Part shown: one piece after another, positions 1 to 39,252 of the stretch
Layout of the letters: the number at the start of each line of letters is the position of its first letter
Numbering within the stretch: position 1 is the first letter of the stretch
Source: Escherichia phage EcoDS1
Sequence record: NC_011042.1
Reading direction: 5' to 3' (one strand)
Length of the DNA stretch: 39,252 nt
Program-made: the position numbers and the translations under genes
The notes under the pieces: generated by a model
The model's input: only the letters and a program-made list of their open reading frames with translations
Told to the model about the DNA's origin: nothing
The model's database searches: none

Positions 1-178
1 TCTCACAGTTCAAGAACCTCAAGTCTCCCCATAGGCCCTCTTTCAGTCCAGACCAAAGGCCCTACCCCAGTCTATCATAAGGTTGGACCGATGGTCAAGA
101 CGTTAGGTCGACGATAGGTTGCGGCTATGGCTTAGGGAAGGACGATAGGTAGGGACTATGGGTCTTCTTTGAGTCTCT
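1..178. repeat. Left direct terminal repeat (DTR), 178 bp
   Basis: Bases 1..178 are identical to 39075..39252 by direct reading; T7-like genomes carry terminal redundancy of this size. Confidence 0.9.
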
Positions 179-1652: not shown

Positions 1653-1846
1653 GTCTTGCACTATTGATAGCCATAGGCTATGGACTTATCGCCTACGTGC
1701 TGGTGAGAGACCTCAACAAAGCGCGTAAAGTCTACAAATTCAACTATGTACGTCTGGGTCGCTGGACTGTACGTCAACCTAACGGAAGATTCATGCGCAA
1801 CTTAGCGAACGTCTGGGATATAGCAACACTTGGGAGCAAACTGTAA
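1649..1846 (+). CDS. Small early protein (65 aa) with N-terminal transmembrane helix
   Basis: ORF track; N-terminus LALLIAIGYGLIAYVLV is TM-like; coupled to flanking ORFs by overlapping start/stop codons. Confidence 0.5.
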   Translation: MSLALLIAIGYGLIAYVLVRDLNKARKVYKFNYVRLGRWTVRQPNGRFMRNLANVWDIATLGSKL

Positions 1847-2244
1847 TGAATATGTCAAATCTGGTACACGCAATGGACTCAATCATATCGCTTCGCACAT
1901 TCACTGATAAGAACGGCGTAGAGTGGAAGTACGTCGGCACGGACTCTCGCGGTCGCGACTACTGGGAGAAGACCGGGAACAAGACCGCTTATGTACATCG
2001 ACACTCGTCACACGCCGCACGTCAACAGCAGGAGCGTGACCGTGTACTACAGGCACGACTCCGGGCAGAGGGCCATAAGTCTGAGCTGCTGTGTCTGGCG
2101 TATGGTGGACGACCAATCACCGACGATGGTAAACTTCTGGTCTCAGGCTGGAAGGCGATAGACCAACGGTCAACCATCAAGCACACGACTCATGGTGACT
2201 TCAGTCATCTTCACGCTAACCCACTGATATGCAAGGTATTCTGA
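1846..2244 (+). CDS. Early protein of unknown function (132 aa)
   Basis: ORF track; TAATG coupling to the upstream ORF; occupies the position of T7 gene 0.7 but is far shorter and has no kinase motifs I recognise. Confidence 0.6.
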   Translation: MNMSNLVHAMDSIISLRTFTDKNGVEWKYVGTDSRGRDYWEKTGNKTAYVHRHSSHAARQQQERDRVLQARLRAEGHKSELLCLAYGGRPITDDGKLLVSGWKAIDQRSTIKHTTHGDFSHLHANPLICKVF

Positions 2245-2266
2245 CTTAACTATCACTATAGGACTC
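2244..2266 (+). promoter_or_regulatory. Phage-RNAP promoter upstream of gene 1
   Basis: ACTTAACTATCACTATAGGACTC matches the 11-copy consensus (-17..+6, +1 G at 2261). Confidence 0.7.
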
Positions 2267-2335: not shown

Positions 2336-5017
2336 ATGAGCGTCATCTCTATTGACAAACACGACTTCTCTGATGTGTCGAACGCCATTGAGCCGTTTAA
2401 CCTGCTGGCTGACCACTACGGGCAAGATCTTGCAGTCAAACAGCTTCAGCTTGAGCATGAGGCATACACTGAAGGCGAGCGACGTTTCATCAAGAACCTT
2501 GAGCGCCAGACTGAGCGCGGGGAACTGGCAGACAATCAGGTCGCCAAGCCTCTTATGCAGACTCTGGTACCTAAGATTGCGCAAGCCGTCAGGGAGTGGC
2601 ATGAAGGTCCAGACGGGAAGCTGTCAACCTCTCGTCCTAGCGTAGCGTTCACCATGTTGAGCACTGAAGAGAAGGCCGTCAAGGATCGCTCTCTTCGTAT
2701 CTCTTGCGAGTCTGCTTCGGTCATCATACTGAAGGTCATACTCTCCAAGCTGGTCAAGCCTGAAGGGATACCGATTACACCGATGGCCTCCGCGATAGGT
2801 CGCACACTTGAGGATGAAATCCGCTTCGGGCGCATTCGTGACAAGGAGAAAGAGCACTTCAAGAAGGCGATAGCTGATAACCTGAACAAGCGAGCTGGGG
2901 CATCCTACAAGAAAGCCTACATGCAAGCGGTTGAGACATCCATGCTGGAGCAGGGTCAACTGGAAGATGCGTGGGGAACTTGGAGTCCTACAGAGGCTGT
3001 CCACGTTGGCATCAAGATGCTTGAGATTGTCATCCAGTCAACACAACTGGTCGAGCTTAAGCGGTACGGTGCTGGCAATGCAGCGGCTGACGTAGAGATG
3101 GTCCACCTGTCAGACTTCTGGGTCAAGAAGATGGCACAACGAGGATTCAGCCTAGCGGGTATCGCTCCAGTCTACCAGCCTTGCGTCGTTCCACCTAAGC
3201 CGTGGACTGGTGTAGTAGGCGGTGGGTACTGGGCCAAGGGTCGCAGACCACTACCACTGATTCGCTTAGGGTCTAAGTCTGCGGTGGCACGTTACGAAGA
3301 CGTGTACATGCCTGAAGTCTATGACGCTGTGAATATCATCCAGAATACACCTTGGAAAGTTAACAAGAAGGTGCTGGAAGTGGTGAACATGGTCGAGAAG
3401 CTGAACAACACGCCTATTGATGACATCCCTCAGATGGAACCGCTGAAGCCTGAAGACTATGCAGGTGAGACTGAAGAGGAACTCAAGGCATGGAAGAAGG
3501 CTGCTGCTGGTATCTACCGCCGAGAGAAGGCCCGGCAGTCACGTAGATTGTCACTAAGCTTTATCGTCAACCAAGCGAACAAGTTCTCTCAATTCAAGGC
3601 CATATGGTTTCCGTACAATATGGACTGGCGCGGCCGTGTCTACGCTGTTCCGATGTTCAACCCTCAAGGTAATGACATGCAGAAGGGCCTTCTGACTCTG
3701 GCAGTCGGTAAGCCTATTGGTGCCGATGGGTTTAAATGGCTGAAGGTCCACGGTGCAAACTGCGCGGGTATCGATAAAGTAACCTTCGAGGAGCGCATCA
3801 AGTGGGTGGAGGACAACCACGACAACATCATGGCTACTGCTAAGGCACCGATGGATAGCATTGAGTGGTGGGGCAAGTTAGACTCTCCGTTTTGCTTCCT
3901 TGCGTTCTGCTTCGAGTATGCTGGCGTGATGCATCACGGATTGTCTTACTCCTGCTCGCTGCCAATAGCTTTCGATGGGTCCTGCTCTGGGATTCAGCAC
4001 TTCAGCGCGATGCTTCGTGATCACATCGGTGGACATGCAGTAAACCTGACGCCTTCCGGTAAGGTCCAAGACATCTACCGCATCGTGTCTGACCGCATTG
4101 AGGAGGAGCTTAAAGTCCTGCTGGTTAACGGCACGGACAACGAGATGGTAACTCACGAGGACAAGAAAACTGGTGAGATTACCGAACGTCTCAAGCTGGG
4201 GACACGAGAGCTGGCCCGGCAGTGGCTTACTTACGGCATGTCACGTAAGGTCACTAAGCGTTCGGTCATGACTCTGGCCTACGGGTCGAAAGAGTATGGC
4301 TTCGCAGACCAAGTTTACGAGGACATCGTGATGCCAGCGATTGACTCAGGGTCTGGCGCTATGTTCACTGAACCAAGCCAAGCGTCTCGCTTCATGGCTA
4401 AGATGATTTGGGAAGCTGTGAGCGTGACCGTAGTTGCTGCGGTTGACGCGATGAAGTGGCTTCAAGGTGCTGCCAAGCTGCTGGCTGCTGAAGTGAAAGA
4501 CAAGAAGACTGGAGAAATCCTGAAGCCTTGCCTTCCGGTACACTGGGTCACACCTGATGGGTTCCCGGTCTGGCAGGAATACCGCAAGAAGGATACCACT
4601 CGTCTGAACCTGATGTTCTTAGGGTCATTCAACCTTCAACCTACGGTCAACAAAGGCACGAAGAAAGAGTTGGATAAGCACAAGCAGGAGTCGGGCATTA
4701 GCCCGAACTTCGTCCACTCACAAGATGGTAGCCACCTCCGCAAGACTGTAGTCCACACGCACCGCAAGTATGGCGTGATGTCATTCGCAGTGATTCACGA
4801 TAGCTTCGGGACCATCCCGGCTGACGCTGAGTATCTGTTCCGTGGTGTCCGTGAGACGATGGTCGAGACCTACCGCGACAACGATGTGCTGCTTGACTTC
4901 TACGAGCAGTTCGAATACCAGCTTCACGAGAGCCAGCGCGACAAGTTGCCTGAGCTTCCGAAGAAAGGTAAACTGAATATCGAAGACATCTTGTCTTCAG
5001 ACTTTGCATTCGCTTAA
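2336..5017 (+). CDS. T7-type single-subunit DNA-directed RNA polymerase (gp1)
   Basis: 893 aa; long stretches match T7 RNAP (CVVPPKPWTG, AIWFPYNMDWRGRVYAV, DSPFCFLAFCFEYAGV, LPIAFDGSCSGIQHFSAMLRD, HDSFGT, C-terminal FAFA). Confidence 0.98.
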   Translation: MSVISIDKHDFSDVSNAIEPFNLLADHYGQDLAVKQLQLEHEAYTEGERRFIKNLERQTERGELADNQVAKPLMQTLVPKIAQAVREWHEGPDGKLSTSRPSVAFTMLSTEEKAVKDRSLRISCESASVIILKVILSKLVKPEGIPITPMASAIGRTLEDEIRFGRIRDKEKEHFKKAIADNLNKRAGASYKKAYMQAVETSMLEQGQLEDAWGTWSPTEAVHVGIKMLEIVIQSTQLVELKRYGAGNAAADVEMVHLSDFWVKKMAQRGFSLAGIAPVYQPCVVPPKPWTGVVGGGYWAKGRRPLPLIRLGSKSAVARYEDVYMPEVYDAVNIIQNTPWKVNKKVLEVVNMVEKLNNTPIDDIPQMEPLKPEDYAGETEEELKAWKKAAAGIYRREKARQSRRLSLSFIVNQANKFSQFKAIWFPYNMDWRGRVYAVPMFNPQGNDMQKGLLTLAVGKPIGADGFKWLKVHGANCAGIDKVTFEERIKWVEDNHDNIMATAKAPMDSIEWWGKLDSPFCFLAFCFEYAGVMHHGLSYSCSLPIAFDGSCSGIQHFSAMLRDHIGGHAVNLTPSGKVQDIYRIVSDRIEEELKVLLVNGTDNEMVTHEDKKTGEITERLKLGTRELARQWLTYGMSRKVTKRSVMTLAYGSKEYGFADQVYEDIVMPAIDSGSGAMFTEPSQASRFMAKMIWEAVSVTVVAAVDAMKWLQGAAKLLAAEVKDKKTGEILKPCLPVHWVTPDGFPVWQEYRKKDTTRLNLMFLGSFNLQPTVNKGTKKELDKHKQESGISPNFVHSQDGSHLRKTVVHTHRKYGVMSFAVIHDSFGTIPADAEYLFRGVRETMVETYRDNDVLLDFYEQFEYQLHESQRDKLPELPKKGKLNIEDILSSDFAFA

Positions 5018-5563: not shown

Positions 5564-5567
5564 CCCT

Positions 5568-6038
5568 ATGTTCGGTAAGTCAAAACTTAAAGCACAAATC
5601 AAAGAGTTGAGCATGAAGGTGGCATACTTGGCGCGAGAAGTAAAGGTCCTAGATAACAACAATGAGAGATTGAAGGGTAAACTTGCTGAATCAGAGCGTA
5701 AGCGCCTAACGCCACCAGCGTCCGTAACTGTCAAGCGTATGGTAGGCATCAAGTTCAAGGTACTGTTCAACGGGCTGTACCAACCGACTGAGTTCAAGAC
5801 TGGACCGGGTAACTGCGGTAAGAACGTTAAGCACTTCACTACATCGAAGACTGAACGCACCATTACCATCCACCAGCACCACATAGATGGGTCTCAGAAA
5901 GACTTCGAGTACCGACTGAGCGACATCGACGGTCGAATCCAGTATGACTATGAGCAAGTTAAAGTCTACGGAGAAGAGGCCGAACGTGAGCGAGAGCTTC
6001 AGGCATTCATGCGGGTAAGGCCGCGCATCATCTTCTAA
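5568..6038 (+). CDS. Hypothetical early protein (156 aa)
   Basis: ORF track; AGAGG RBS; N-terminal charged/coiled-coil-like region; its TAA stop lies inside the following phage promoter. Confidence 0.6.
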   Translation: MFGKSKLKAQIKELSMKVAYLAREVKVLDNNNERLKGKLAESERKRLTPPASVTVKRMVGIKFKVLFNGLYQPTEFKTGPGNCGKNVKHFTTSKTERTITIHQHHIDGSQKDFEYRLSDIDGRIQYDYEQVKVYGEEAERERELQAFMRVRPRIIF

Positions 6039-6056
6039 ACTATCACTATAGGATTA
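6034..6056 (+). promoter_or_regulatory. Phage-RNAP promoter (phi1.1-like)
   Basis: CTAAACTATCACTATAGGATTAG; +1 G at 6051. Confidence 0.8.
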
Positions 6057-6061
6057 GACTC

Positions 6062-6088
6062 AAGGTCATGACTCAGAGTCGTGGCCTT
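6062..6088 (+). other. RNase III-type processing hairpin (R1.1-like)
   Basis: AAGGUCAUGAC/GUCGUGGCCUU stem of 11 bp including G-U pairs, 5-nt loop; paralogous to the hairpins at 13055 and 35950. Confidence 0.5.
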
Positions 6089-6126
6089 CATGATTAACCC
6101 TAATAAACTACTGGAGATTTAACCGT

Positions 6127-7724: not shown

Positions 7725-7747
7725 CCTAAGCTATCACTATAGGACAA
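7725..7747 (+). promoter_or_regulatory. Phage-RNAP promoter
   Basis: CCTAAGCTATCACTATAGGACAA; +1 G at 7742. Confidence 0.75.
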
Positions 7748-8448: not shown

Positions 8449-8568
8449 ATGAACCAAGACCAGATTAACTTTGTGTGTCAGCTTATTAAGGAGTTCGTTG
8501 ACTTCACTGATTTATCCGAAGATGAACTTGTTAAGCTGGAAGAGATTCTAGACAAGGAGATTTTATGA
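8449..8568 (+). CDS. Small acidic protein (39 aa), gene 1.8 position
   Basis: GGAGAGG RBS; stop overlaps the gene 2 start (ATGA). Confidence 0.4.
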
Positions 8569-8723
8569 GCGACGTCGAGAAGAAATACATCGTGGAGCTT
8601 GAGGGTCGAGTTAAGTCCTTCGAGGTTCCGGTGTACGCAAAGTCTCTTGAAGAGGCTACCCTGAAGTCCCAAGAGTATGAGGACGCTGGGTTTGTGGTCG
8701 GACGGATTCGTCCTGAGACCTAA
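8565..8723 (+). CDS. gp2-like inhibitor of host RNA polymerase
   Basis: 52 aa; SFEVPVYA and [10 protein letters not shown] resemble T7 Gp2; below the ORF-track cutoff. Confidence 0.7.
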
Positions 8724-8741
8724 ACTATCACTGTAGGACAG
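8719..8741 (+). promoter_or_regulatory. Phage-RNAP promoter (phi2.5-like), variant
   Basis: CCTAAACTATCACTGTAGGACAG: one substitution (A to G at -3) relative to the consensus. Confidence 0.6.
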
Positions 8742-10423: not shown

Positions 10424-10871
10424 GGTACAGTTCAACCCACGGTCCCGGACTGACGCTATCTTCGTTCACTGTTCGGCTACCAAGCCAGAGATGGACATCG
10501 GGGTAGAGACCATCCGTATGTGGCATAAGCAACAAGGCTGGCTGGACGTAGGCTACCACTTTATCATCAAGCGCGATGGTACTGTGGAAGAGGGGCGCCC
10601 GGTCAATGTCGTAGGGTCACACGTTAAGGACTGGAACTCCAAGTCCGTAGGCGTCTGCCTTGTAGGTGGAATTGACGCTAAGGGCAAGTTTGAAGCTAAC
10701 TTCACTCCGGCCCAGATGAACTCACTACGCAACAAGCTGGCTGACCTGAAGGCCATGTACCCTCAGGCAGAAATAAAAGCACACCATGACGTCGCACCAA
10801 AGGCGTGTCCAAGTTTCGACTTACAACGCTGGCTGGCTACCAATGAGCTGGTCACTTCCGACCACGGTTAA
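10413..10871 (+). CDS. Lysozyme / N-acetylmuramoyl-L-alanine amidase (gp3.5)
   Basis: 152 aa; DAIFVHCSATKP, GWLDVGYHFIIKRDGTVEEGR, VCLVGGID, HHDVAPKACPSFDL match T7 lysozyme. Confidence 0.95.
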   Translation: MVSKVQFNPRSRTDAIFVHCSATKPEMDIGVETIRMWHKQQGWLDVGYHFIIKRDGTVEEGRPVNVVGSHVKDWNSKSVGVCLVGGIDAKGKFEANFTPAQMNSLRNKLADLKAMYPQAEIKAHHDVAPKACPSFDLQRWLATNELVTSDHG

Positions 10872-10894: not shown

Positions 10895-11111
10895 ATGATT
10901 AAATTTATCGAATTTCTTGGTCGTCTGGTGGTGCGTGGTTATCGTCGTGCTGCGACTATGGAACGAAAGGTAGCACGAGAAGACTGCTGACGGTGCAGCG
11001 GATGCTGCTGCTCTGGCTGACAAGCTGACCATCGCGTCACTGGAAGCTGGTATGAAGGCACGTCAGGCTGACACCAAAGCCGACCAGCTGTCTCAGTTCT
11101 TCAAAGCCTAA
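10895..11111 (+). pseudogene. Possible frameshifted remnant ORF
   Basis: ATG at 10895 with AGGAGAG RBS gives 31 aa to TGA at 10988; an overlapping open frame continues to TAA at 11109..11111 but contains no ATG until near its end. Confidence 0.25.
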
Positions 11112-11130
11112 ACTATCACCTTAGGGATGG
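11108..11130 (+). promoter_or_regulatory. Phage-promoter-like element upstream of gene 4, divergent
   Basis: CTAAACTATCACCTTAGGGATGG: two mismatches in the CACTATA core. Confidence 0.4.
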
Positions 11131-11176: not shown

Positions 11177-12868
<1,692 letters not shown>

Positions 12869-12879
12869 GGAGGAGTACA

Positions 12880-13044
12880 TTGCTAAGAAAACTTAAAGCT
12901 CGATACCATCGGTTCATGTACAAATGGTGGAGCGATGAAGCAACCTGCCTGTCGAACATTCTGGGAGACCAGCGGTTCAACTCTAAGGCATGGAAGAAAG
13001 CTAACCGTAAGTTTATGTACCACTTCTTGCGTACAGACTTATAG
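12880..13044 (+). CDS. Small basic protein (gene 4.x position)
   Basis: Open frame from 12841 (GTG); AAGGAGG at 12867..12873 favours the in-frame TTG at 12880, with an ATG at 12916 as alternative; Lys/Arg-rich. Confidence 0.4.
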   Translation: MLRKLKARYHRFMYKWWSDEATCLSNILGDQRFNSKAWKKANRKFMYHFLRTDL

Positions 13045-13054
13045 GTCTAAACTC

Positions 13055-13107: not shown

Positions 13108-15279
13108 ATGTTTGACCTTAAGAGTATCTGGGGTTCTGACATCGAGACCAACGGTCTCCTTGATACAGTCTCCCAGTTTCACTGTGGGGTCCTGATTAAC
13201 GCCGAGTCGAATGAGACCCTTAAGTATGGGGTAGCTCCGATGGTCGGTATCGTCGGTGGCTTCAAAGAGTATGTTCATAAAGTGGAAGAGATTGCCGCAT
13301 CGCCTGATGGTATGCTGGTATTCCACAACGGTATCAACTATGACGTCCCGGCTATAGACAAGCTGAAGCGTCTGTACTTTGGGAAACGTTTTAACTTCCC
13401 GAAACACAAGATGATTGATACCTTGGTGCTGGGACGCTTGATGTATCCAAACATTAAGTTCTCAGACATGGGCGCAGTGAAAGCTGGTCGTCTGCCACCT
13501 CAGATGATGGGACGACAGTCTCTTGAGGCTTGGGGCTATCGTCTCGGTGAGATGAAAGGTGAATACAAACACGATTACGTTGCCAAATGCAAGGCTGAAG
13601 GTATCGAATATAAGGCTGGGGACGAATGGTTGTTCCCGTCTCAGGAGATGCTGGACTATAACGTTCAGGACGTTGTGGTCACACTGGCGTTGTTCAAGAA
13701 GTTCCTGACTGACAAGTATTACTTCCAGTCTGAACAGTTCGCTTTCGAGCAGATTTATGCGTTGCGTCTGGAACATGATGCTGCGTGGACCTGTGCGAAG
13801 ATGGAGCGTAACGGCTATCCGATGAACACCGAGATGGTAGAAGGCTTATATCGTGAACTCACTGTCAAACGTGCGGAGTTGCTGGACAAGCTGCGCTCGA
13901 CTTTCGGTAGCTGGTACGCACCAAAGGGAGGCAAGGAGTTCTTCAGGCATCCACGGACAGGTAAGGACCTTCCGAAGTATCCGAGGGTCGTGTATCCTAA
14001 GGTTGGTGGCATCTTTAAGAAGCCTAAGAACAAAGCCCAACGCTTAGGTCTTGAACCTTGTGAACGCGATACGCGAGACACGATGGAAGGAGCACCATTC
14101 ACGCCAATCACTTACGTTGAGTTTAATCCGGGAAGCGGAGACCACTTAGCGAAAGTCCTGATGGAGCGTGGCTGGGAGCCTGTGGACTTCACTGACACTG
14201 GGAAACCTGTAGTCGATGACGAGACGTTAGAACACGTTAAGTTACCAGACGCAGAGGCTCAGGATTGCGTAGAGCTGGTCCGTGAGTATCTGGTAGTCCA
14301 GAAGCGCATCGGACAGGCTGCTGAAGGTAAGAACGCATGGTTGAAACTTGTAGGTCCAGACGGGCGTATGCACGGTTCAATCAACCCTTGTGGAGCAGTA
14401 ACCGGACGTGCGACCCATAGTTCACCAAACATGGCTCAGGTCCCGGCTAATGGTGCTCCGTATGGTGAGACTTGCCGTGGTGCTTTCGGTGCAGCATGGA
14501 ACAAGAAGGATGGTAAGCCAGACCCTTGGATTCAAGTAGGTGTGGATGCTTCAGGTCTTGAGCTTCGTTGTCTAGGGAACCGAGCGGCTCCGTTTGATGG
14601 TGGTGAATACGCCAAGACTGTGGTCGAAGGTGACATCCACTGGGCCAACGCTGTCAACGCTGGGTTAGCACCTAACGTCAAGCGCGATAAGTCGAACCAC
14701 GAGCATGAGGCTTTCCGTAACAACGCTAAGACGTTCATCTATGCGTTCCTGTATGGTGCAGGGGCAGCTAAGATTGGACTGATAGTCGGCGGTGGCAAGA
14801 AGGAAGGTGCGGCCTTGATGAAGAAATTCATTGAGGGTACACCAGCCATCAAGGACCTCAGGGAAGCTGTGAGTAATACGTTAATCTCAGACTCTAAGTG
14901 GGTGGACGGAGAGAACATCGTTAAATGGAAACGCCGTTGGTTGCGTGGACTCGATGGTCGACGTATACACATCCGGTCTCCACACTCAGCACTGAACGCG
15001 TTACTTCAGGGCGATGGTGCGGTAGTTTGTAAGCACTGGATTGTCGAGACAGAACGTATGCTAGAAGAGGCCGGGTATATCCACGGCTGGGAAGGAGACT
15101 TCGCGTACATGGCATGGGTTCACGACGAATTACAGATTGCGTGTCGTACTCAGGAGATTGCCGAAGAAGTCGTCAAGATTGCTCAACTTGCTATGCGTAA
15201 GGTGGGTGAGTTCTATAACTTTAAATGTGTCCTTGATACCGAAGGTAAGATTGGACCAACGTGGAAGGAGTGTCACTAA
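13108..15279 (+). CDS. DNA polymerase (gp5)
   Basis: About 723 aa from the ATG at 13108 (GGAGG RBS; the ORF-track start at 13072 is an in-frame GTG); DIE exonuclease motif, YNVQDVVVT, PKYPRVVYPKVGGIFKKPKNKAQR, AKTFIYAFLYGAG, VHDE match T7 gp5. Confidence 0.97.
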   Translation: MFDLKSIWGSDIETNGLLDTVSQFHCGVLINAESNETLKYGVAPMVGIVGGFKEYVHKVEEIAASPDGMLVFHNGINYDVPAIDKLKRLYFGKRFNFPKHKMIDTLVLGRLMYPNIKFSDMGAVKAGRLPPQMMGRQSLEAWGYRLGEMKGEYKHDYVAKCKAEGIEYKAGDEWLFPSQEMLDYNVQDVVVTLALFKKFLTDKYYFQSEQFAFEQIYALRLEHDAAWTCAKMERNGYPMNTEMVEGLYRELTVKRAELLDKLRSTFGSWYAPKGGKEFFRHPRTGKDLPKYPRVVYPKVGGIFKKPKNKAQRLGLEPCERDTRDTMEGAPFTPITYVEFNPGSGDHLAKVLMERGWEPVDFTDTGKPVVDDETLEHVKLPDAEAQDCVELVREYLVVQKRIGQAAEGKNAWLKLVGPDGRMHGSINPCGAVTGRATHSSPNMAQVPANGAPYGETCRGAFGAAWNKKDGKPDPWIQVGVDASGLELRCLGNRAAPFDGGEYAKTVVEGDIHWANAVNAGLAPNVKRDKSNHEHEAFRNNAKTFIYAFLYGAGAAKIGLIVGGGKKEGAALMKKFIEGTPAIKDLREAVSNTLISDSKWVDGENIVKWKRRWLRGLDGRRIHIRSPHSALNALLQGDGAVVCKHWIVETERMLEEAGYIHGWEGDFAYMAWVHDELQIACRTQEIAEEVVKIAQLAMRKVGEFYNFKCVLDTEGKIGPTWKECH

Positions 15280-16991: not shown

Positions 16992-17014
16992 ACTAAACTA
17001 TCACTATAGGGACT
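16992..17014 (+). promoter_or_regulatory. Phage-RNAP promoter (phi6.5-like)
   Basis: CACTAAACTATCACTATAGGGACT; +1 G at 17009. Confidence 0.8.
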
Positions 17015-18248: not shown

Positions 18249-19817
18249 ATGGCTGAACGTGAAGGGTTCGCTGCTGAAGGAGCCAAAGCGGTCTATGACC
18301 GACTGAAGAACGGTAGACAGCCATATGAGACACGCGCTCAGAATTGTGCTGCTGTCACTATCCCGTCACTGTTTCCTAAGGAGTCCGACAACTCGTCTAC
18401 TGAGTACACCACTCCGTGGCAGTCTGTAGGTGCTCGCTGCTTGAACAACTTGGCTGCAAAGCTGATGTTGGCGTTATTCCCTCAGTCACCGTGGATGCGA
18501 CTGACAGTCTCCGAATATGAGGCAAAGACCTTGAGTCAGGACTCAGAGGCTGCTGCTCGTGTTGACGAAGGGCTGGCTATGGTCGAGCGCGTGTTGATGG
18601 CCTACATGGAGACTAACAGTTTCCGTGTCCCATTGTTTGAGGCTCTTAAGCAGCTTATAGTCTCAGGTAACTGTCTGCTCTACATTCCAGAGCCTGAACA
18701 GGGAACCTACAGTCCCATGCGAATGTACCGCTTAGTGTCCTACGTTGTCCAACGTGATGCGTTCGGTAACATCTTGCAGATTGTGACTCTAGACAAGGTA
18801 GCGTTTAGTGCTCTACCGGAAGACGTGAAGTCTCAACTCAACACAGACGACTATGAGCCTGACACCGAGCTTGAAGTGTATACGCACATCTACCGTCAGG
18901 ACGACGAGTATCTGCGCTACGAGGAAGTGGAAGGCATTGAGGTGACAGGGACCGATGGTTCCTACCCGCTGACTGCATGTCCATACATCCCGGTACGAAT
19001 GGTTCGACTGGATGGTGAAGACTACGGTCGTTCTTACTGCGAGGAGTATCTGGGAGACCTCAACTCGCTGGAGACGATTACAGAAGCTATCACCAAAATG
19101 GCTAAGGTAGCCTCCAAGGTGGTTGGCCTCGTTAACCCGAACGGTATCACGCAACCTCGACGTCTGAACAAGGCGGCTACAGGCGAGTTCGTGGCTGGTC
19201 GCGTTGAGGACATCAACTTCCTGCAACTGACGAAAGGTCAGGACTTTACGATTGCTAAGTCGGTTGCTGACGCTATCGAGCAACGTTTAGGCTGGGCCTT
19301 CCTTCTTAATAGTGCTGTTCAGCGTAATGCCGAGCGTGTCACTGCTGAAGAGATTCGTTATGTTGCTGGCGAACTGGAGGCGACCTTAGGTGGCGTGTAC
19401 TCAGTTCAGTCACAAGAGCTTCAGTTACCTATAGTCCGTGTGCTGATGAACCAACTTCAGTCTGCGGGCATGATTCCTGACCTTCCGAAAGAAGCGGTAG
19501 AGCCTACTGTCTCCACAGGTCTGGAAGCTCTGGGCCGTGGTCAGGACTTAGAGAAGCTAACTCAGGCAGTAAACATGATGACCGGGCTACAGCCTCTGCA
19601 ACAGGACCCAGACATTAACTTGCCGACCCTGAAGCTGCGACTGCTGAATGCCTTAGGTATTGACACTGCTGGCTTGCTGCTGACCCAGGACGAGAAGTTG
19701 CAACGTATGGCTGAACAATCCGCTCAAGGAGCTGTGGTCAACGGTGCGTCTGCTGCTGGTGCTAACATGGGCGCTGCTGTAGGTCAGGGAGCTGGTGAGG
19801 ATATGGCTCAAGCCTAA
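18249..19817 (+). CDS. Head-tail connector / portal protein (gp8)
   Basis: 522 aa; size, position and long conserved blocks consistent with T7 gp8. Confidence 0.95.
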   Translation: MAEREGFAAEGAKAVYDRLKNGRQPYETRAQNCAAVTIPSLFPKESDNSSTEYTTPWQSVGARCLNNLAAKLMLALFPQSPWMRLTVSEYEAKTLSQDSEAAARVDEGLAMVERVLMAYMETNSFRVPLFEALKQLIVSGNCLLYIPEPEQGTYSPMRMYRLVSYVVQRDAFGNILQIVTLDKVAFSALPEDVKSQLNTDDYEPDTELEVYTHIYRQDDEYLRYEEVEGIEVTGTDGSYPLTACPYIPVRMVRLDGEDYGRSYCEEYLGDLNSLETITEAITKMAKVASKVVGLVNPNGITQPRRLNKAATGEFVAGRVEDINFLQLTKGQDFTIAKSVADAIEQRLGWAFLLNSAVQRNAERVTAEEIRYVAGELEATLGGVYSVQSQELQLPIVRVLMNQLQSAGMIPDLPKEAVEPTVSTGLEALGRGQDLEKLTQAVNMMTGLQPLQQDPDINLPTLKLRLLNALGIDTAGLLLTQDEKLQRMAEQSAQGAVVNGASAAGANMGAAVGQGAGEDMAQA

Positions 19818-19835
19818 ACTATCACTATAGGAACA
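19813..19835 (+). promoter_or_regulatory. Phage-RNAP promoter (phi9-like)
   Basis: CCTAAACTATCACTATAGGAACA; the gp8 TAA stop is embedded in the promoter. Confidence 0.8.
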
Positions 19836-19932: not shown

Positions 19933-20817
19933 ATGTCTCAATCAGTTTATGCCGAGTTTGGCGTTAGCTCTACTGCAATCACGGGTTCCGTTGAGGACCT
20001 GAACGAACACCAAAAGTCTATGCTTGAACAGGACGTAGCTGTTCGTGATGGCGACGACGCTATTACCTTCAAGCAACTGGAAGCCGAAAACGAAGAGGCG
20101 ACCGAAGAAGACGAGAACGTCGAAGAGACTGAAGGTGAAGAAGACCACGAGTCCGATGACGAAGAGTCTGAGACCGATGGTGAACAACCTGAGTTCGTCG
20201 AGCTGGGTGATGCACCTAAAGAGCTGACAGAAAGTGTAACCGCGCTGGATGAAAACGAAGCTGCATTCGACGACATGGTGTCTTCTGCTGTGGAAGCTGG
20301 CAAGGTCACTGCTGATGAAATTACCGCTATCAAGGCTGAATACGCCAAGGACGGTAAGCTGTCTGACGCATCCTACGCTAAGTTGCAGGAAGCAGGTTAC
20401 ACCAAGCGTTTCGTAGATTCGTTTGTCCGTGGTCAGGAAGCTCTGGCTGAACAGTATGCTGCTGGTGTGGTTCGCTACGCTGGTGGAGCTGAACAGTTTA
20501 ATCGCATCCTGTCCCACCTTGAGTCAACCGACCCGTCAACTCGTGAAGCACTGGAAGCTGCTATCGTTCGTAAGGACATTGCGACTACCAAAGCTCTGCT
20601 GAATCTTGCTGGAAAGACACTTGGTAAAGCTGTAGGCGTTAAACCGCAGCGTACCATCACCACTCAGGCTAAACCTGTGGTAGCACCTAAGGCTCCTAAG
20701 ACCGAAGCATTCAGCTCTAAGGCTGACATGATTAAGGCTATGAGTGACCCGCGATACCTGCGTGATGCTAAGTACACGATGGAAGTTCGCGCTAAGGTAG
20801 CTGCATCAAGCCTGTAG
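19933..20817 (+). CDS. Capsid assembly (scaffolding) protein (gp9)
   Basis: 294 aa, strongly acidic with Glu/Asp runs; position between portal and capsid genes. Confidence 0.9.
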   Translation: MSQSVYAEFGVSSTAITGSVEDLNEHQKSMLEQDVAVRDGDDAITFKQLEAENEEATEEDENVEETEGEEDHESDDEESETDGEQPEFVELGDAPKELTESVTALDENEAAFDDMVSSAVEAGKVTADEITAIKAEYAKDGKLSDASYAKLQEAGYTKRFVDSFVRGQEALAEQYAAGVVRYAGGAEQFNRILSHLESTDPSTREALEAAIVRKDIATTKALLNLAGKTLGKAVGVKPQRTITTQAKPVVAPKAPKTEAFSSKADMIKAMSDPRYLRDAKYTMEVRAKVAASSL

Positions 20818-20818
20818 G

Positions 20819-20841
20819 ACTAAACTATCACTATAGGGAGA
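20819..20841 (+). promoter_or_regulatory. Phage-RNAP promoter (phi10-like), best consensus match
   Basis: CTAAACTATCACTATAGGGAGAC; initiating GGGAGA and a leader with GGTTTCCCT as in the T7 phi10 leader; AGGAGA RBS before the capsid ATG. Confidence 0.85.
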
Positions 20842-25349: not shown

Positions 25350-25399
25350 AAGGGCCTATAGATTTACCTTAACTATCACTATAGGGACTATAGGCCCTT
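25350..25399. repeat. 12-bp perfect inverted repeat enclosing the phi13-like promoter
   Basis: AAGGGCCTATAG (25350..25361) and CTATAGGCCCTT (25388..25399) are exact reverse complements. Confidence 0.6.
25367..25389 (+). promoter_or_regulatory. Phage-RNAP promoter (phi13-like)
   Basis: CCTTAACTATCACTATAGGGACT; +1 G at 25384. Confidence 0.8.
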
Positions 25400-29156: not shown

Positions 29157-32100
29157 ATGGCGACTCGTGGTATTCGCAATAACAATCCGGGGAACATCCG
29201 GGTAAGTAAGGACCAATGGGAAGGAATGACTGGAGATGATGGAGCATTTGTCATTTTCGATAGTCCAGAGTCTGGCGTCCGAGCTTTAGGTAAAAACCTG
29301 CTGTCCTACGGTCGCCAAGGTTATGACTCCATCGAGAAGATCATCAACCGATGGGCGCCTCCTAATGAGAATGACACTCAGGCTTATATTGACTCAGTGG
29401 TGGCTGCGACTGGTATTCCAGCTACCCAGAGTCTAGACCTCTCGGACCCGGACACCCTGTCTTCTCTGGCACAAGCTATCAGCTTCCACGAGACAGGCTC
29501 CCGGTACAACCCTGAAGTCTATCAGCAGGGAGTCGCAAGAGCACTCAACGGTATCAGCCCAAAGACTCCACCAGTAAGCGCTAACGTATTTGACGCACTC
29601 ACGGAAGGACTCAAGGCTAAACCTAAAGTAGCTCTTGGTGAGAACCTTCCGACCGCTGCTGGTATGAACATTGAGGGTCAAGCACCTGAAGCTCCCAACG
29701 AATCGTTCGGTGAGATGTTCTATAAGGCTACTGGCGAGACCATGCAGGAACGAGAGGACCGCTCTACGTGGTTCGGTTTCGGTGCGGCTACAGAAGCTGA
29801 AGTGAAGAACTCTATGGTCGGCGTGGCTATCCGCGCTGGTCAGACTGAGGACTCACTGGATGTCATTGGCGATGTGTTCAACCCAACCAGATGGAACAAC
29901 CATAAGTGGTCTCGTGAGGAGCTGGACCAGATTCGTAACGCTGGGGTTCTGCCTCAGTATTACGGAGTCATTACTGGCGGCTCTCCTCAGAACCTGACCG
30001 AGCTTATTAACTTGGCGCTGGAGAACCAGAAGTTAGACGCTGAGAAGGCCAAGGCTGGTACTGGCGCTCAGTTAGCCGCTGGTTTTATTGGTGCTGGCGT
30101 GGACCCTCTGACATACGTTCCTATTGCTGGACAGGTAGGTAAAGGTGGTAAGCTGGTAAACAAGATGTTCACCGTGGCTGCGCAATCTGGAGCGTTGGCT
30201 GGTGTGTCTGAGATGTCCCGTACCTCAGTGGCTGGTGGCGATGCTCATGTGGCTGAAGCTATCCTTGGTGGTGCTCTCTTCGGTGGTGGTATGACTGCTA
30301 TTGCTGATGGTCTAGGCAGAGCCTTAGGCCGAAACACTAATGAGTTTGCTGGTCCAGCTACACGTCTGGAAGCTCGTGAGACTGCTCGTAACGTTGACGG
30401 TCAGGACCTGTCTCGTCTACCTATTCAGGAAGGTGAGCAAACCTTTAGTCACCAAGGAGTTAAGTTCGCTGACGTGCCGAATGAGCCGGGAAGTGTTCGA
30501 CTTGAGGATGGTTCAATCCTGATTGGTGAAAACCCTCTGAACCCTAAGACACGTCAAGTATTTGACGAAGTGATTGAGCCGGAACGTGCCGCTGCTGGTG
30601 TGACCCTTGGTGGACTTACCGAGATTGGTCTGAAGCTGCTTCGGTCTGAGAACCCTGAGATTCGTGGAGTAGCTGCTGACTTAGTACGTTCACCGACTGG
30701 TATGCAGTCTGGAGCCTCAGGTAAAATAGGGACAACTGCGTCAGACGTATTCGAGAGACTTCGTGCTGTGGACCATCGGTTCTACAACGACATCGACGAT
30801 GCGGTTACTGAGGCACTAAAGGACCCGTACTTCCAGACAGCATTCTGGCGAGACTCTGGCGCATTCCGTCAGGACATCTACCAGCGTGTGTCTATGGCTA
30901 TCGAAGACGGTAGCGGAAACCTGAAGGCTGAACTGACTCCGGGAGAACTGAAAGTCTATGACCTACTGAAGAACCAGTTTGACGCCAAGCGTGAGATGAT
31001 GGAGAACCCAGCTATGTTTGGTCGGCCAGACGCTCAGTCTATCTTTCCTGGTAGCCGCTTCAAGGGAACCTACGTCCCTCATGTGTATAGCAAACAGATG
31101 AAGGAGCTGTACATCAAGGAGCTTGGGAGTCCAGAGGCGTTGCAGGAGGCCATCAAGAAGTCATGGTTGACCAGCTATGCGTCTCGACCTGAAGTCAAGA
31201 AACGCGTGGACGAGGCACTCTTAGAGGCTGACCATACGTTGACTCCAGAGGGACTTGCTGCTGCGGTCGATAAGTACGCCAATGATAAGGCTTACGGTAT
31301 CTCTCACACAGAGCAGTTCGAACGCTCCTCCGTAATGGAAGAGAACATCAACGGTCTTGTGGGTCTGGAGAACAACAGCTTCCTTGAGGCTCGTAACCTT
31401 TTCGATAGCGATATGTCAATCGTTCTACCGAACGGTCAGACGTTCAGTGTTAACAATCTACGTGAGTGGGACATGGACAAGATTGTTCCGGCATACAACC
31501 GTCGAGTTAATGGGGACATCGCTATCATGGCTGGTACAGGAAAGACCACGAAGGACATGAAGGACTTGGTTGAGACCATGATGAACAAGGCTGGGGATGA
31601 CGGTAAGTTGAAAGGTGAGGTATCTACCTTACGTGACACCTTGAAGATTCTCACTGGTCGTGCTCGACGTGATGGTGCTGATGATGCAGCCTTCGCTACC
31701 GTGATGCGCACAATGACAGACCTATCGTTCTTCGCTAAGAATGCCTACATGGGTGTTCAGAACTTAACGGAGATTGGTGGTATGCTGGCTCGTGGCAACG
31801 TTCGTGCGCTGCTTCATGGAGTCCCGATGTTCCGTGACCTAGCCTTCCGTAACAAGAAGGTAGGGGCCTCAGAGATTAAGGACCTGCACAATGTTATCTT
31901 CGGTAAGGAACTGGATGACTCAATCCGTCCGTCTAAACAGGATGTCATTGACCGTCTGCGGTCTTACAGTGACCTCGGTCGTGGTATGGCTACAGCTCTG
32001 GGGACTGCCAAGTATTACACTGGTGAACTTGCAGTACGCTCCCCGTTCACTAAAGTCCTCAATGGTACGACCAACTACCTGTTAGATGCTGGTCGTCAAG

Positions 32101-33044
32101 GCTTCCTGTCTGACATCGTTGAGCATAGCCTGACTGGTAGCAAGCGTAAGTTCGATGACCGCTGGCTGAAGACAGCTGGTATCTCTGACGAGCAGTGGAA
32201 GGGCATTAAGTCACTAATCCGTGAGTCAGTGACTCGTGGTCCAGACGGGAAGTATACCATCAAGGATAAGAAGGCGTTCAGTCAGGACCCAAGGGCTATG
32301 GACCTGTGGCGTATGGGTGACACCATCGCTGACGAAACGTTACTCCGGCCCCACAAGCTGTCAAACATGGACGCCAAGGCTTATGGTCCTCTCGCTAAGA
32401 CTGTCCTTCAGTTTAAGAACTTCGTCATCAAGTCCATCAATGGACGTACCATGCGAACCTTCTATAACGCCACGAAGAACAACCGAGCGATGGACGCTGC
32501 TCTGTCCACTGTGATCTCTATGGGTCTTGCTGGTATCTACTACATGGCTCAGGCGCATGTCAAGGCTTACGCCATGCAGGATGGTCGAGACCGTGACTAC
32601 CTCAAGCAAGCTCTGGACCCGACGATGATTGGATATGCAGCTCTATCACGTAGTTCACATCTTGGTGGACCACTTGGGGTAGCTAACATTCTTGGGGGTA
32701 TCGCTGGGTATGAGGACACTAAGATGCTCCGTTCGTCTATCCTACCTCGTTCGCCTACAGAGAAGCCTGAACGTGCCATCGCGTATGGTGCAGCTACAAG
32801 TGACCCTGTGATGAATGTCGTTGGTAACTTCTTGGAGCAGGTTCCAGCTTTCGGATATGCTGCTAACGTTGGCGCTTCGGCTTACAACTTGGCTGGCTAC
32901 CTCAAGGCTGATACTCGTGTCAACGAGCGTGACTACATGACCGGGATGTATAATACGTTCCGTGAACTGGTTCCGAACGACCCAATTACCCAGAAGCTGT
33001 TGCTTGGAACGTTTGAGGAGCAAGGTATTCACATCAAGGACTAA
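29157..33044 (+). CDS. Internal virion protein D (gp16) with a divergent N-terminal module
   Basis: 1295 aa; from about residue 200 it matches T7 gp16 (SVAGGDA, MRLEARETARN, VRSPTGMQSGASGK, GTYVPHVY, ENNSFLEARNLFDSD, PAYNRRVNGDIAIM, ILTGRARR, LRPHK, NDPLTQ-type C-terminus); residues 1..130 do not match the T7 transglycosylase N-terminus. Confidence 0.93.
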   Translation: MATRGIRNNNPGNIRVSKDQWEGMTGDDGAFVIFDSPESGVRALGKNLLSYGRQGYDSIEKIINRWAPPNENDTQAYIDSVVAATGIPATQSLDLSDPDTLSSLAQAISFHETGSRYNPEVYQQGVARALNGISPKTPPVSANVFDALTEGLKAKPKVALGENLPTAAGMNIEGQAPEAPNESFGEMFYKATGETMQEREDRSTWFGFGAATEAEVKNSMVGVAIRAGQTEDSLDVIGDVFNPTRWNNHKWSREELDQIRNAGVLPQYYGVITGGSPQNLTELINLALENQKLDAEKAKAGTGAQLAAGFIGAGVDPLTYVPIAGQVGKGGKLVNKMFTVAAQSGALAGVSEMSRTSVAGGDAHVAEAILGGALFGGGMTAIADGLGRALGRNTNEFAGPATRLEARETARNVDGQDLSRLPIQEGEQTFSHQGVKFADVPNEPGSVRLEDGSILIGENPLNPKTRQVFDEVIEPERAAAGVTLGGLTEIGLKLLRSENPEIRGVAADLVRSPTGMQSGASGKIGTTASDVFERLRAVDHRFYNDIDDAVTEALKDPYFQTAFWRDSGAFRQDIYQRVSMAIEDGSGNLKAELTPGELKVYDLLKNQFDAKREMMENPAMFGRPDAQSIFPGSRFKGTYVPHVYSKQMKELYIKELGSPEALQEAIKKSWLTSYASRPEVKKRVDEALLEADHTLTPEGLAAAVDKYANDKAYGISHTEQFERSSVMEENINGLVGLENNSFLEARNLFDSDMSIVLPNGQTFSVNNLREWDMDKIVPAYNRRVNGDIAIMAGTGKTTKDMKDLVETMMNKAGDDGKLKGEVSTLRDTLKILTGRARRDGADDAAFATVMRTMTDLSFFAKNAYMGVQNLTEIGGMLARGNVRALLHGVPMFRDLAFRNKKVGASEIKDLHNVIFGKELDDSIRPSKQDVIDRLRSYSDLGRGMATALGTAKYYTGELAVRSPFTKVLNGTTNYLLDAGRQGFLSDIVEHSLTGSKRKFDDRWLKTAGISDEQWKGIKSLIRESVTRGPDGKYTIKDKKAFSQDPRAMDLWRMGDTIADETLLRPHKLSNMDAKAYGPLAKTVLQFKNFVIKSINGRTMRTFYNATKNNRAMDAALSTVISMGLAGIYYMAQAHVKAYAMQDGRDRDYLKQALDPTMIGYAALSRSSHLGGPLGVANILGGIAGYEDTKMLRSSILPRSPTEKPERAIAYGAATSDPVMNVVGNFLEQVPAFGYAANVGASAYNLAGYLKADTRVNERDYMTGMYNTFRELVPNDPITQKLLLGTFEEQGIHIKD

Positions 33045-33062
33045 ACTATCACTATAGGAAAC
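33040..33062 (+). promoter_or_regulatory. Phage-RNAP promoter (phi17-like)
   Basis: CTAAACTATCACTATAGGAAACT; +1 G at 33057; the gp16 stop is embedded. Confidence 0.8.
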
Positions 33063-38499: not shown

Positions 38500-38522
38500 A
38501 CTTAACTATCACTATAGGGAAG
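38500..38522 (+). promoter_or_regulatory. Phage-RNAP promoter near the right end (phiOR-like)
   Basis: GACTTAACTATCACTATAGGGAAG; +1 G at 38517. Confidence 0.8.
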
Positions 38523-38936: not shown

Positions 38937-39074
38937 CTACTGTAGTCAAGGACCTAAAGTAACACTATAGCAGTCCATGGTCTATCCCAAGGTCTCTGAC
39001 ATACGGTATTACCTACAGTAGCAGGGACTCCTAAGGAGGGACGATGAGTTTTGGACCAAAAGTTTGAGACCACA

Positions 39075-39252
39075 TCTCACAGTTCAAGAACCTCAAGTCT
39101 CCCCATAGGCCCTCTTTCAGTCCAGACCAAAGGCCCTACCCCAGTCTATCATAAGGTTGGACCGATGGTCAAGACGTTAGGTCGACGATAGGTTGCGGCT
39201 ATGGCTTAGGGAAGGACGATAGGTAGGGACTATGGGTCTTCTTTGAGTCTCT
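39075..39252. repeat. Right direct terminal repeat (DTR), 178 bp
   Basis: Identical to 1..178. Confidence 0.9.

Follow-up and report, generated by a model that had tools for sequence, protein, structure and literature searches.

In promoters of the T7 group, positions -17 to -13 are contacted in the minor groove by the AT-rich recognition loop of the phage RNA polymerase, and A or T is tolerated and favoured at these positions. Most transcripts of these phages read through the promoters located downstream. The overlap of a promoter with the stop codon of the preceding gene was reportedly noted when the T7 sequence was first published, and the “T7.1” refactoring is said to have required the two elements to be separated. 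No usable explicit statement of this T7 promoter/stop overlap emerged from keyword searches of the literature. The same layout is visible in the curated RefSeq-type records of T7, T3, K11 and gh-1, and also in SP6. The arrangement analyzed here in Escherichia phage EcoDS1 is already known: it is the standard, documented space-saving layout of T7-like phages and not a peculiarity of EcoDS1.

For T7 (RefSeq NC_001604), the position of +1 minus the end of the coding sequence is 15 for genes 1.2, 1.4, 1.5, 2, 4.2, 8 and 16, and the TAA at -17..-15 of phi1.3, phi1.5, phi1.6, phi2.5, phi4.3, phi9 and phi17 is the stop codon of these seven genes. T3 shows the overlap at seven promoters, where genes 1.2, 2 and 8 end at -17..-15, genes 3.7, 4.2 and 9 at -18..-16 and gene 1.05 at -14..-12. 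The T3 promoters with TAAT and not the consensus AATT at -17..-14 are exactly the three in which -17..-15 is the stop. The stop of T3 gene 16 is the TAA within a T7-type promoter sequence (32757..32779) which is annotated as not used by the T3 polymerase; this sequence has kept its role as a stop while, according to the record, having none as a promoter. In K11 (five cases), genes 1.05, 1.2, 8 and 16 end at -18..-16, and gene 2 ends at the TAG of AATTAGG (-14..-12) in phi2.5. In gh-1 (five to six cases), the leading TAA of TAAAAACCC (-17..-15) ends the gene before 2.5 and the lysozyme, exonuclease, gp8 and gp16 genes. The stop codon of the gh-1 DNA polymerase gene occupies positions 14-16 of a putative promoter phi9 (14452..14475). 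SP6, a member of the Molineuxvirinae, has three promoter-embedded stops at different junctions. Position and identity of the shared bases vary between these phages: the stop uses -17/-16 of AATTA (tAA) in T3 and K11, and TAA at -17..-15 in gh-1. Genes 8 and 16 are always among the promoter-ended genes in the Studiervirinae compared (T3, K11 and gh-1).

The window, i.e. the whole stretch of 39,252 bp that was analyzed (NC_011042.1), carries an exact direct terminal repeat of 178 bp (1..178 and 39075..39252) and therefore represents the complete linear T7-type genome of a K1F-like podophage (Kayfunavirus). The terminal repeat of K1F was reported to be 179 bp long. Kayfunavirus records show 92-96% identity across 90-95% of a 20-kb query, and EcoDS1 shares with this genus a linear genome of ~39-40 kb, direct terminal repeats of ~180 bp, collinearity with K1F and high sequence similarity. 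All long ORFs of the genome are located on the + strand.

A 19-nt motif, CTAAACTATCACTATAGGA, was found 12 times with at most three mismatches, always on the + strand, and not once in 100 shuffled sequences. Eleven of these are strong promoter copies with the consensus CTAAACTATCACTATAGG(A/G) on the + strand and at most two mismatches in the 14-nt core. The first G of CTAAACTATCACTATAGG was assigned as +1 by analogy with T7, which places the TAA of the motif at -15..-13. The core CACTATAGG is identical to positions -7..+2 of the T7 promoter, the first conserved base is the C at -16, and position -17 is not conserved. An alignment of promoter lists that included K1F and T3 shows this core to be common to T7, K11 and SP6, and the region -12..-8 to be phage-specific. 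Set against the T7 and K1F annotation by means of the ORF list and PHROG matches, the promoters lie at positions syntenic with the T7 phi promoters, namely before genes 1.x, 2.5, 4, 6.5, 9, 10, 13 and 17 as well as at the right genome end. Judged from their sequence, they are genuine T7-group (Autographiviridae) promoters that belong to the single-subunit RNA polymerase encoded by the phage, because 11-12 copies on the + strand stand against none expected, the CACTATAGG core is the same as in T7 and a cognate polymerase gene is present. The product of this gene, of 893 aa, is the enzyme predicted to read them. For K1F, an engineered pair of a polymerase with the K1F specificity loop and the matching promoter P_K1F has been used experimentally (PMC4299498). 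The identical promoter consensus CTWAACTATCACTATAGG was described in 2026 for the Kayfunavirus phage Sparklingdew, and the same paper placed Kayfunavirus promoter repeats at the 3' ends of coding sequences (PMC13298934).

The promoters and the genes next to them are given below. Promoter coordinates follow the preliminary description of this DNA, which counted from -17 of 23-nt T7-style promoters; 6034..6056 corresponds to -17..+6 with +1 at 6051. The first conserved base C is given for each.

2244..2266, + strand: promoter, CTTAAC variant (C at 2245), ahead of the RNA polymerase gene and preceded by ORF 1846..2244
2336..5017, + strand: gene of the single-subunit phage RNA polymerase, 893 aa, 95-97% nucleotide identity to Kayfunavirus/K1F-like polymerase genes
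5568..6038, + strand: accessory ORF, 156 aa, PHROG match to phrog_8103 (family of unknown function) over residues 1-152 of 156
6034..6056, + strand: promoter (C at 6035), TAA 6036..6038 is the stop of ORF 5568..6038
7725..7747, + strand: promoter, CTAAGC variant (C at 7726), 67 nt past the ligase stop, no shared stop
8565..8723, + strand: gp2, host RNA polymerase inhibitor, 52 aa (phrog_1307, E=3e-23)
8719..8741, + strand: promoter, phi2.5 equivalent, CACTGTAGG variant (C at 8720), TAA 8721..8723 is the gp2 stop
11107..11129, + strand: promoter, CACCTTAGG variant (C at 11108), TAA 11109..11111 is the stop of a frameshifted homologue of K1F gp17
16992..17014, + strand: promoter, phi6.5 equivalent (C at 16993), no shared stop
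18249..19817, + strand: gp8, portal / head-tail connector, 522 aa (phrog_449, E=9e-210, residues 7-518 of 522)
19813..19835, + strand: promoter, phi9 equivalent (C at 19814), TAA 19815..19817 is the gp8 stop
20819..20841, + strand: promoter, phi10 equivalent (C at 20820), own TAA at 20821..20823, gp9 TAG one codon upstream
25367..25389, + strand: promoter, phi13 equivalent, CTTAAC variant (C at 25368), 25 nt past the gp12 stop
29157..33044, + strand: gp16, internal virion protein, 1295 aa (phrog_342, residues 6-1293 of 1295)
33040..33062, + strand: promoter, phi17 equivalent (C at 33041), TAA 33042..33044 is the gp16 stop
38500..38522, + strand: promoter, phiOR equivalent, CTTAAC variant (C at 38501), 96 nt past the terminase stop

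Each stop codon near a promoter was traced back mechanically to the previous in-frame stop. At four promoters, a real gene located upstream proved to terminate with the TAA at -15..-13: the 156-aa ORF, gp2, gp8 and gp16. By analogy with T7, the predicted +1 G of these promoters is located at 6051, 8736, 19830 and 33057. The preliminary description had listed these four sites (6034, 8719, 19813 and 33040) among the promoters whose TAA is, or abuts, the stop of the preceding gene, and ORF tracing and PHROG matches agree with it. For the 20819 region, which it listed as well, “abuts” is a fair term. The gp9 gene (19933..20817) ends with TAG 20815..20817 (-21..-19), and the sequence continues as TAG-GAC-TAA with the promoter TAA as a second stop in the same frame. 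At 2244, the promoter was said to start on the last base of the upstream stop. This is literally correct, as ORF 1846..2244 (phrog_7066) ends with a TGA at -19..-17 that directly adjoins the first conserved base C 2245; however, the overlap is nominal, involving only the non-conserved position -17, and is an abutment rather than a shared stop. The TAG that the promoter carries at -2..+1 is not used as a gene stop at any EcoDS1 promoter, so the effect is specific to the promoter 5' edge. GGA together with CTAAAC occurs in 4/4 stop-sharing promoters; among the others, GGA is found in 2/7 and CTAAAC in 4/7. A link of stop-sharing with the +3 base or with the CTAAAC/CTTAAC variant was considered and dropped, as the numbers are too small and CTTAAC also supplies the stop in relatives.

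TAA is the commonest stop codon, and a wrong call is in principle conceivable for a short ORF like gp2 (52 aa), which would leave the pattern as a chance overlap within an AT-rich motif or as a product of gene calling, with TAAs that are not true gene ends. To us this is hardly credible. As a null model, each of the ten promoters with genes on both sides was placed freely within its own intergenic gap, the limits being maximal overlap with the upstream gene on one side and a distance of 12 nt from the following start codon on the other. Under free placement 0.15 promoters are expected at maximal overlap and 4 were observed; the exact Poisson-binomial probability of at least 4 of 10 is 8.3e-6. 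For at least six promoters within 6 nt of maximal overlap, P is 1.3e-4. The gene ends are no artefacts either, because the PHROG matches of the six upstream ORFs all extend practically to the C-terminus (the phrog_1052 match covers gp9 through its last residue). Identical junctions occur in K1F, in ~25 related contigs and in the curated annotation of T7, T3, K11 and gh-1. Chance is thus ruled out by the exact placement null and by conservation across relatives, and mis-called gene ends by the PHROG coverage and the identical ends in relatives.

K1F has the same promoter consensus as EcoDS1, CTWAACTATCACTATAGG, and four of its genes use the promoter TAA as their stop: gp2, gp8 and gp16, as in EcoDS1, and gp17 (10655..10870). 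K1F lacks the 156-aa ORF before the first promoter after the polymerase gene, which is present in EcoDS1. The gp17 gene is intact in K1F, whereas the EcoDS1 copy is frameshifted. The homologue of this 71-aa protein occupies 10896..11111 in EcoDS1 and is disrupted by a 1-nt insertion near 10975, and the promoter TAA 11109..11111 continues to close its C-terminal part. The split may reflect a pseudogene, an error in the sequence or a site of frameshifting.

For a wider view, an exact-pattern scan of IMG/VR yielded 77 loci from ~25 contigs, nearly all of ~39-40 kb. With a slightly degenerate promoter pattern, and after identical 100-nt contexts had been collapsed, 188 distinct promoter contexts were obtained from contigs of the Kayfunavirus type. 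In 84 of them an ORF of 40 aa or more has the promoter TAA as its stop, a count that is descriptive and does not stand for independent events, because the relatives are phylogenetically non-independent. The stop lies at -15..-13 in 77 of the 84 contexts (a single sharp peak) and at -14..-12, in the CTTAAC variant, in the remaining 7; other offsets come nowhere near. The TAG at -2..+1 serves as the stop in 1/188 contexts, at the end of a Kayfunavirus-type ORF that reads through most of the promoter and terminates with ...PKLSL. A promoter follows every distinct gp2, gp8, gp9 and gp16 3' end in the IMG/VR loci. The gp9 stops are located at -21 or -24, mostly in frame with the promoter TAA. The gp16 junction has its stop at -15 in all 21 distinct contexts of the relatives, and the gp8 junction is conserved in 20 distinct contexts. 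Two states of the latter occur, GCC-TAA-ACTATCAC with the stop at -15..-13 and GCT-TAA-CTATCAC with the stop at -14..-12. The register of the gp8 frame relative to +1 shifts by 1 nt together with the CTTAAC variant and the stop stays inside the promoter, so its position is constrained but not frozen. The earlier statement that tight packing fixes the promoter positions relative to the reading frames holds as a description, but the register is not rigid.

Tabulating the promoter-to-stop distances in EcoDS1 and related genomes, as had been suggested, bears the arrangement out, with a value of 15 at seven promoters in T7. As in EcoDS1, the upstream stop in T7 is embedded in the A/T-rich 5' edge of the promoter; the junctions 2/phi2.5, 8/phi9 and 16/phi17 are common to both phages, and in both some promoters (phi6.5, phi13 and phiOR) share no stop. 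The two differ in the promoter sequence upstream of -8 (CTAAACTAT in EcoDS1 versus TAATACGAC in T7), in the location of the TAA, which in EcoDS1 (-15..-13) is 2 nt closer to the transcription start, and in the number of shared stops (4 versus 7). Stops within promoters at the orthologous 2/phi2.5, 8/phi9 and 16/phi17 junctions occur in EcoDS1, K1F, T7, T3, K11 and gh-1, and in every genus compared the embedded stop falls within -18..-12, as -18..-16, -17..-15, -15..-13 or -14..-12. Family-wide, what is conserved is that a gene terminates within the A/T-rich edge at -18..-12 of the promoter that follows, above all at 2/phi2.5, 8/phi9 and 16/phi17, and the particular bases vary.

The promoter behaves as a hard boundary at the 156-aa ORF, which lacks a stop of its own and ends on the promoter TAA 6036..6038. 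Among related contigs, 10 distinct versions of it were found, 53-83% identical, and all end on the promoter TAA with C-terminal tails that differ in sequence and length (RPRFA, RPRFIA, RPRVVI, RPRLVP, IPRIA and others). A segment of 469 nt (5566..6034) is absent from K1F, its right edge lying exactly at the promoter base C(-16), and in other relatives the ORF is likewise cleanly absent with the breakpoint exactly at the first base of the promoter. The gene-less state retains an orphan Shine-Dalgarno sequence, AAGAGG, and the 3-nt microhomology CTA is present at both edges of the missing segment. A presence/absence polymorphism that ends precisely on a promoter might suggest that the identical ~20-bp promoters are preferred crossover or deletion end points bounding gene modules, and that crossover between co-infecting relatives or within a genome would leave genes ending exactly at promoters. 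The accessory ORFs of several unrelated families in the relatives (C-termini LRTDY, TPPKA, ECLDD and KGFFS) that end on the promoter TAA would agree with such cassette junctions, as would T3 gene 16 on its T7-type promoter, which per the record is unused by the T3 polymerase. Nevertheless, we consider this explanation quite unlikely. The left breakpoint of the 469-nt indel is the CTA microhomology beside the start codon and not a promoter, the replaced module in the TPPKA case includes the promoter itself, and the core junctions of gp8 and gp16 lie between conserved genes with no sign of exchange. The indel fits an ordinary microhomology deletion, filtered by the need for an intact promoter. 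The homologue of K1F gp17, frameshifted in EcoDS1 but with the TAA 11109..11111 as its stop, is a second case of a promoter acting as a boundary.

The arrangement is very probably explained by compaction of the genome against the promoter, which sets a fixed limit and whose TAA is used twice. The 5' edge of the promoter is an A/T-rich element that the polymerase is expected to contact, and in this family the element happens to spell TAA. Upstream genes would be transcribed from earlier promoters on polycistronic read-through mRNAs, and because transcription reads through, the promoter sequence would also be present in the mRNA, where the TAA would end translation like any other stop codon. Under selection for compactness, the spacer between a gene and the next promoter would be lost, and the promoter, since it cannot be altered, would behave as a fixed boundary. 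At the end point of this process the last sense codon would run into base -16 and the promoter TAA would become the stop. The data show the coincidence, its non-randomness, its conservation and its flexibility in register; we infer from them this route and a dual constraint on the TAA. Three bases with two functions, promoter recognition and translation termination, might render the arrangement stable over long evolutionary distances. The edge of the promoter also yields to the needs of the coding sequence, as seen in the three TAAT promoters of T3 and in the 1-nt shift of register at the gp8 junction. Loss of the TAA would add 10, 10, 17 and 37 residues to the 156-aa protein, gp2, gp8 and gp16, respectively, and translation of gp16 would then run into gene 17. 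Compaction is not complete, because five of the 11 promoters (7726, 11108, 16993, 25368 and 38501) are separated by 25-240 nt from the last intact gene before them. At 2/phi2.5, 8/phi9 and 16/phi17, common descent rather than ongoing selection could account for most of the conservation. A comparison can be drawn with the ATGA and TAATG stop-start overlaps of other phages, in which two signals likewise share nucleotides on a tightly packed, unidirectionally transcribed genome. Both signals are translational there, whereas in EcoDS1 polymerase binding takes place on the DNA and termination on the RNA.

The K1F-type promoter has an additional TAG at -2..+1 and closes two of the three reading frames, whereas the T7 promoter closes one. 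This property, together with the tandem in-frame TAG-GAC-TAA of gp9 and the mostly in-frame gp9 stops of the relatives (-21 or -24), would suit selection of the promoter stop triplets (TAA at -15..-13, TAG at -2..+1) as translational insulators, with compaction only secondary. Ribosomes on read-through mRNAs would then stop before the 5' leader of the next gene, its processing hairpin and its ribosome-binding site. The read-through of 10-37 residues after loss of the TAA, for gp16 into gene 17, points in the same direction, as does a stable hairpin after the start at 6051. This leader of promoter 6035 (6051..6126) has a long predicted hairpin of -20.1 kcal/mol (z = -2.4 versus shuffled sequences). 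Insulation as the driving force is unlikely all the same. The T7 promoter closes only one frame and yet shows the same layout, and the triplets are also present in promoters far from any gene (16993, 25368 and 38501), for which recognition by the polymerase is a sufficient explanation. Moreover, the other leaders fold no better than shuffled sequence: among the leaders of seven promoters that were folded, only that at 6051 exceeds its shuffles, and general leader RNA structure was not found. A regulatory RNA structure tied to the stop-sharing promoters was rejected on the unremarkable folding of all seven leaders except that at 6051. The hairpin at 6051..6126 is reminiscent of the RNase III sites after phi1.1 and phi1.3 in T7 and T3.

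Beyond compaction with dual use of the TAA, one might propose that the overlap is actively maintained, that upstream coding partly dictates the variation of the promoter 5' edge and that the promoter acts as a universal “borrowed stop” and hard boundary. We regard this extension as possible but rather doubtful. The observations in its favour are the TAAT versus AATT variants of T3, and CTAAAC versus CTTAAC in Kayfunavirus with the compensating 1-nt shift of gp8. If it is true, accessory ORFs without a stop of their own would be kept or cleanly deleted immediately upstream of a promoter.

What the present analysis adds to the known layout is that the stop always lies within -18..-12, that its exact position differs between genera and can shift by 1 nt within the genus, that 84/188 related contexts use the promoter TAA as a stop and that the 156-aa ORF depends on the promoter for its stop. 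The biology is not new, being that of T7 organisation; the practical value concerns annotation and engineering of therapeutic-candidate phages. For annotation, wherever a gene of a K1F-like phage extends to a CTAAAC promoter, its stop is to be expected at the TAA of that promoter, and overlapping promoter and CDS features should be accepted. For engineering, deletion or exchange of gp2, gp8, gp16 or the 156-aa ORF including the stop would impair the promoter on which the following essential gene relies, and mutation of promoter positions -15..-13 would lengthen the upstream protein by 10-37 residues.

Further differences in promoter content were observed. Between the primase/helicase and DNA polymerase genes, the corresponding region of EcoDS1 (12817..13047) has a different sequence with no recognisable promoter; some IMG/VR relatives (L005 and L019) have an extra promoter there, preceded by accessory ORFs of 54 aa (ending LRTDY) and 177 aa (ending TPPKA), both of which end on the promoter TAA. 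In two other relatives (L014 and L029), the variant CACTAAAGG, with a T3-like A at -2, replaces CACTATAGG at the promoter preceding the polymerase gene. Finally, a weak promoter-like copy, CTAAAGTAACACTATAGC, with three mismatches is located at 38954..38972 in EcoDS1, 450 nt downstream of the phiOR-like promoter and ~100 nt ahead of the right terminal repeat.
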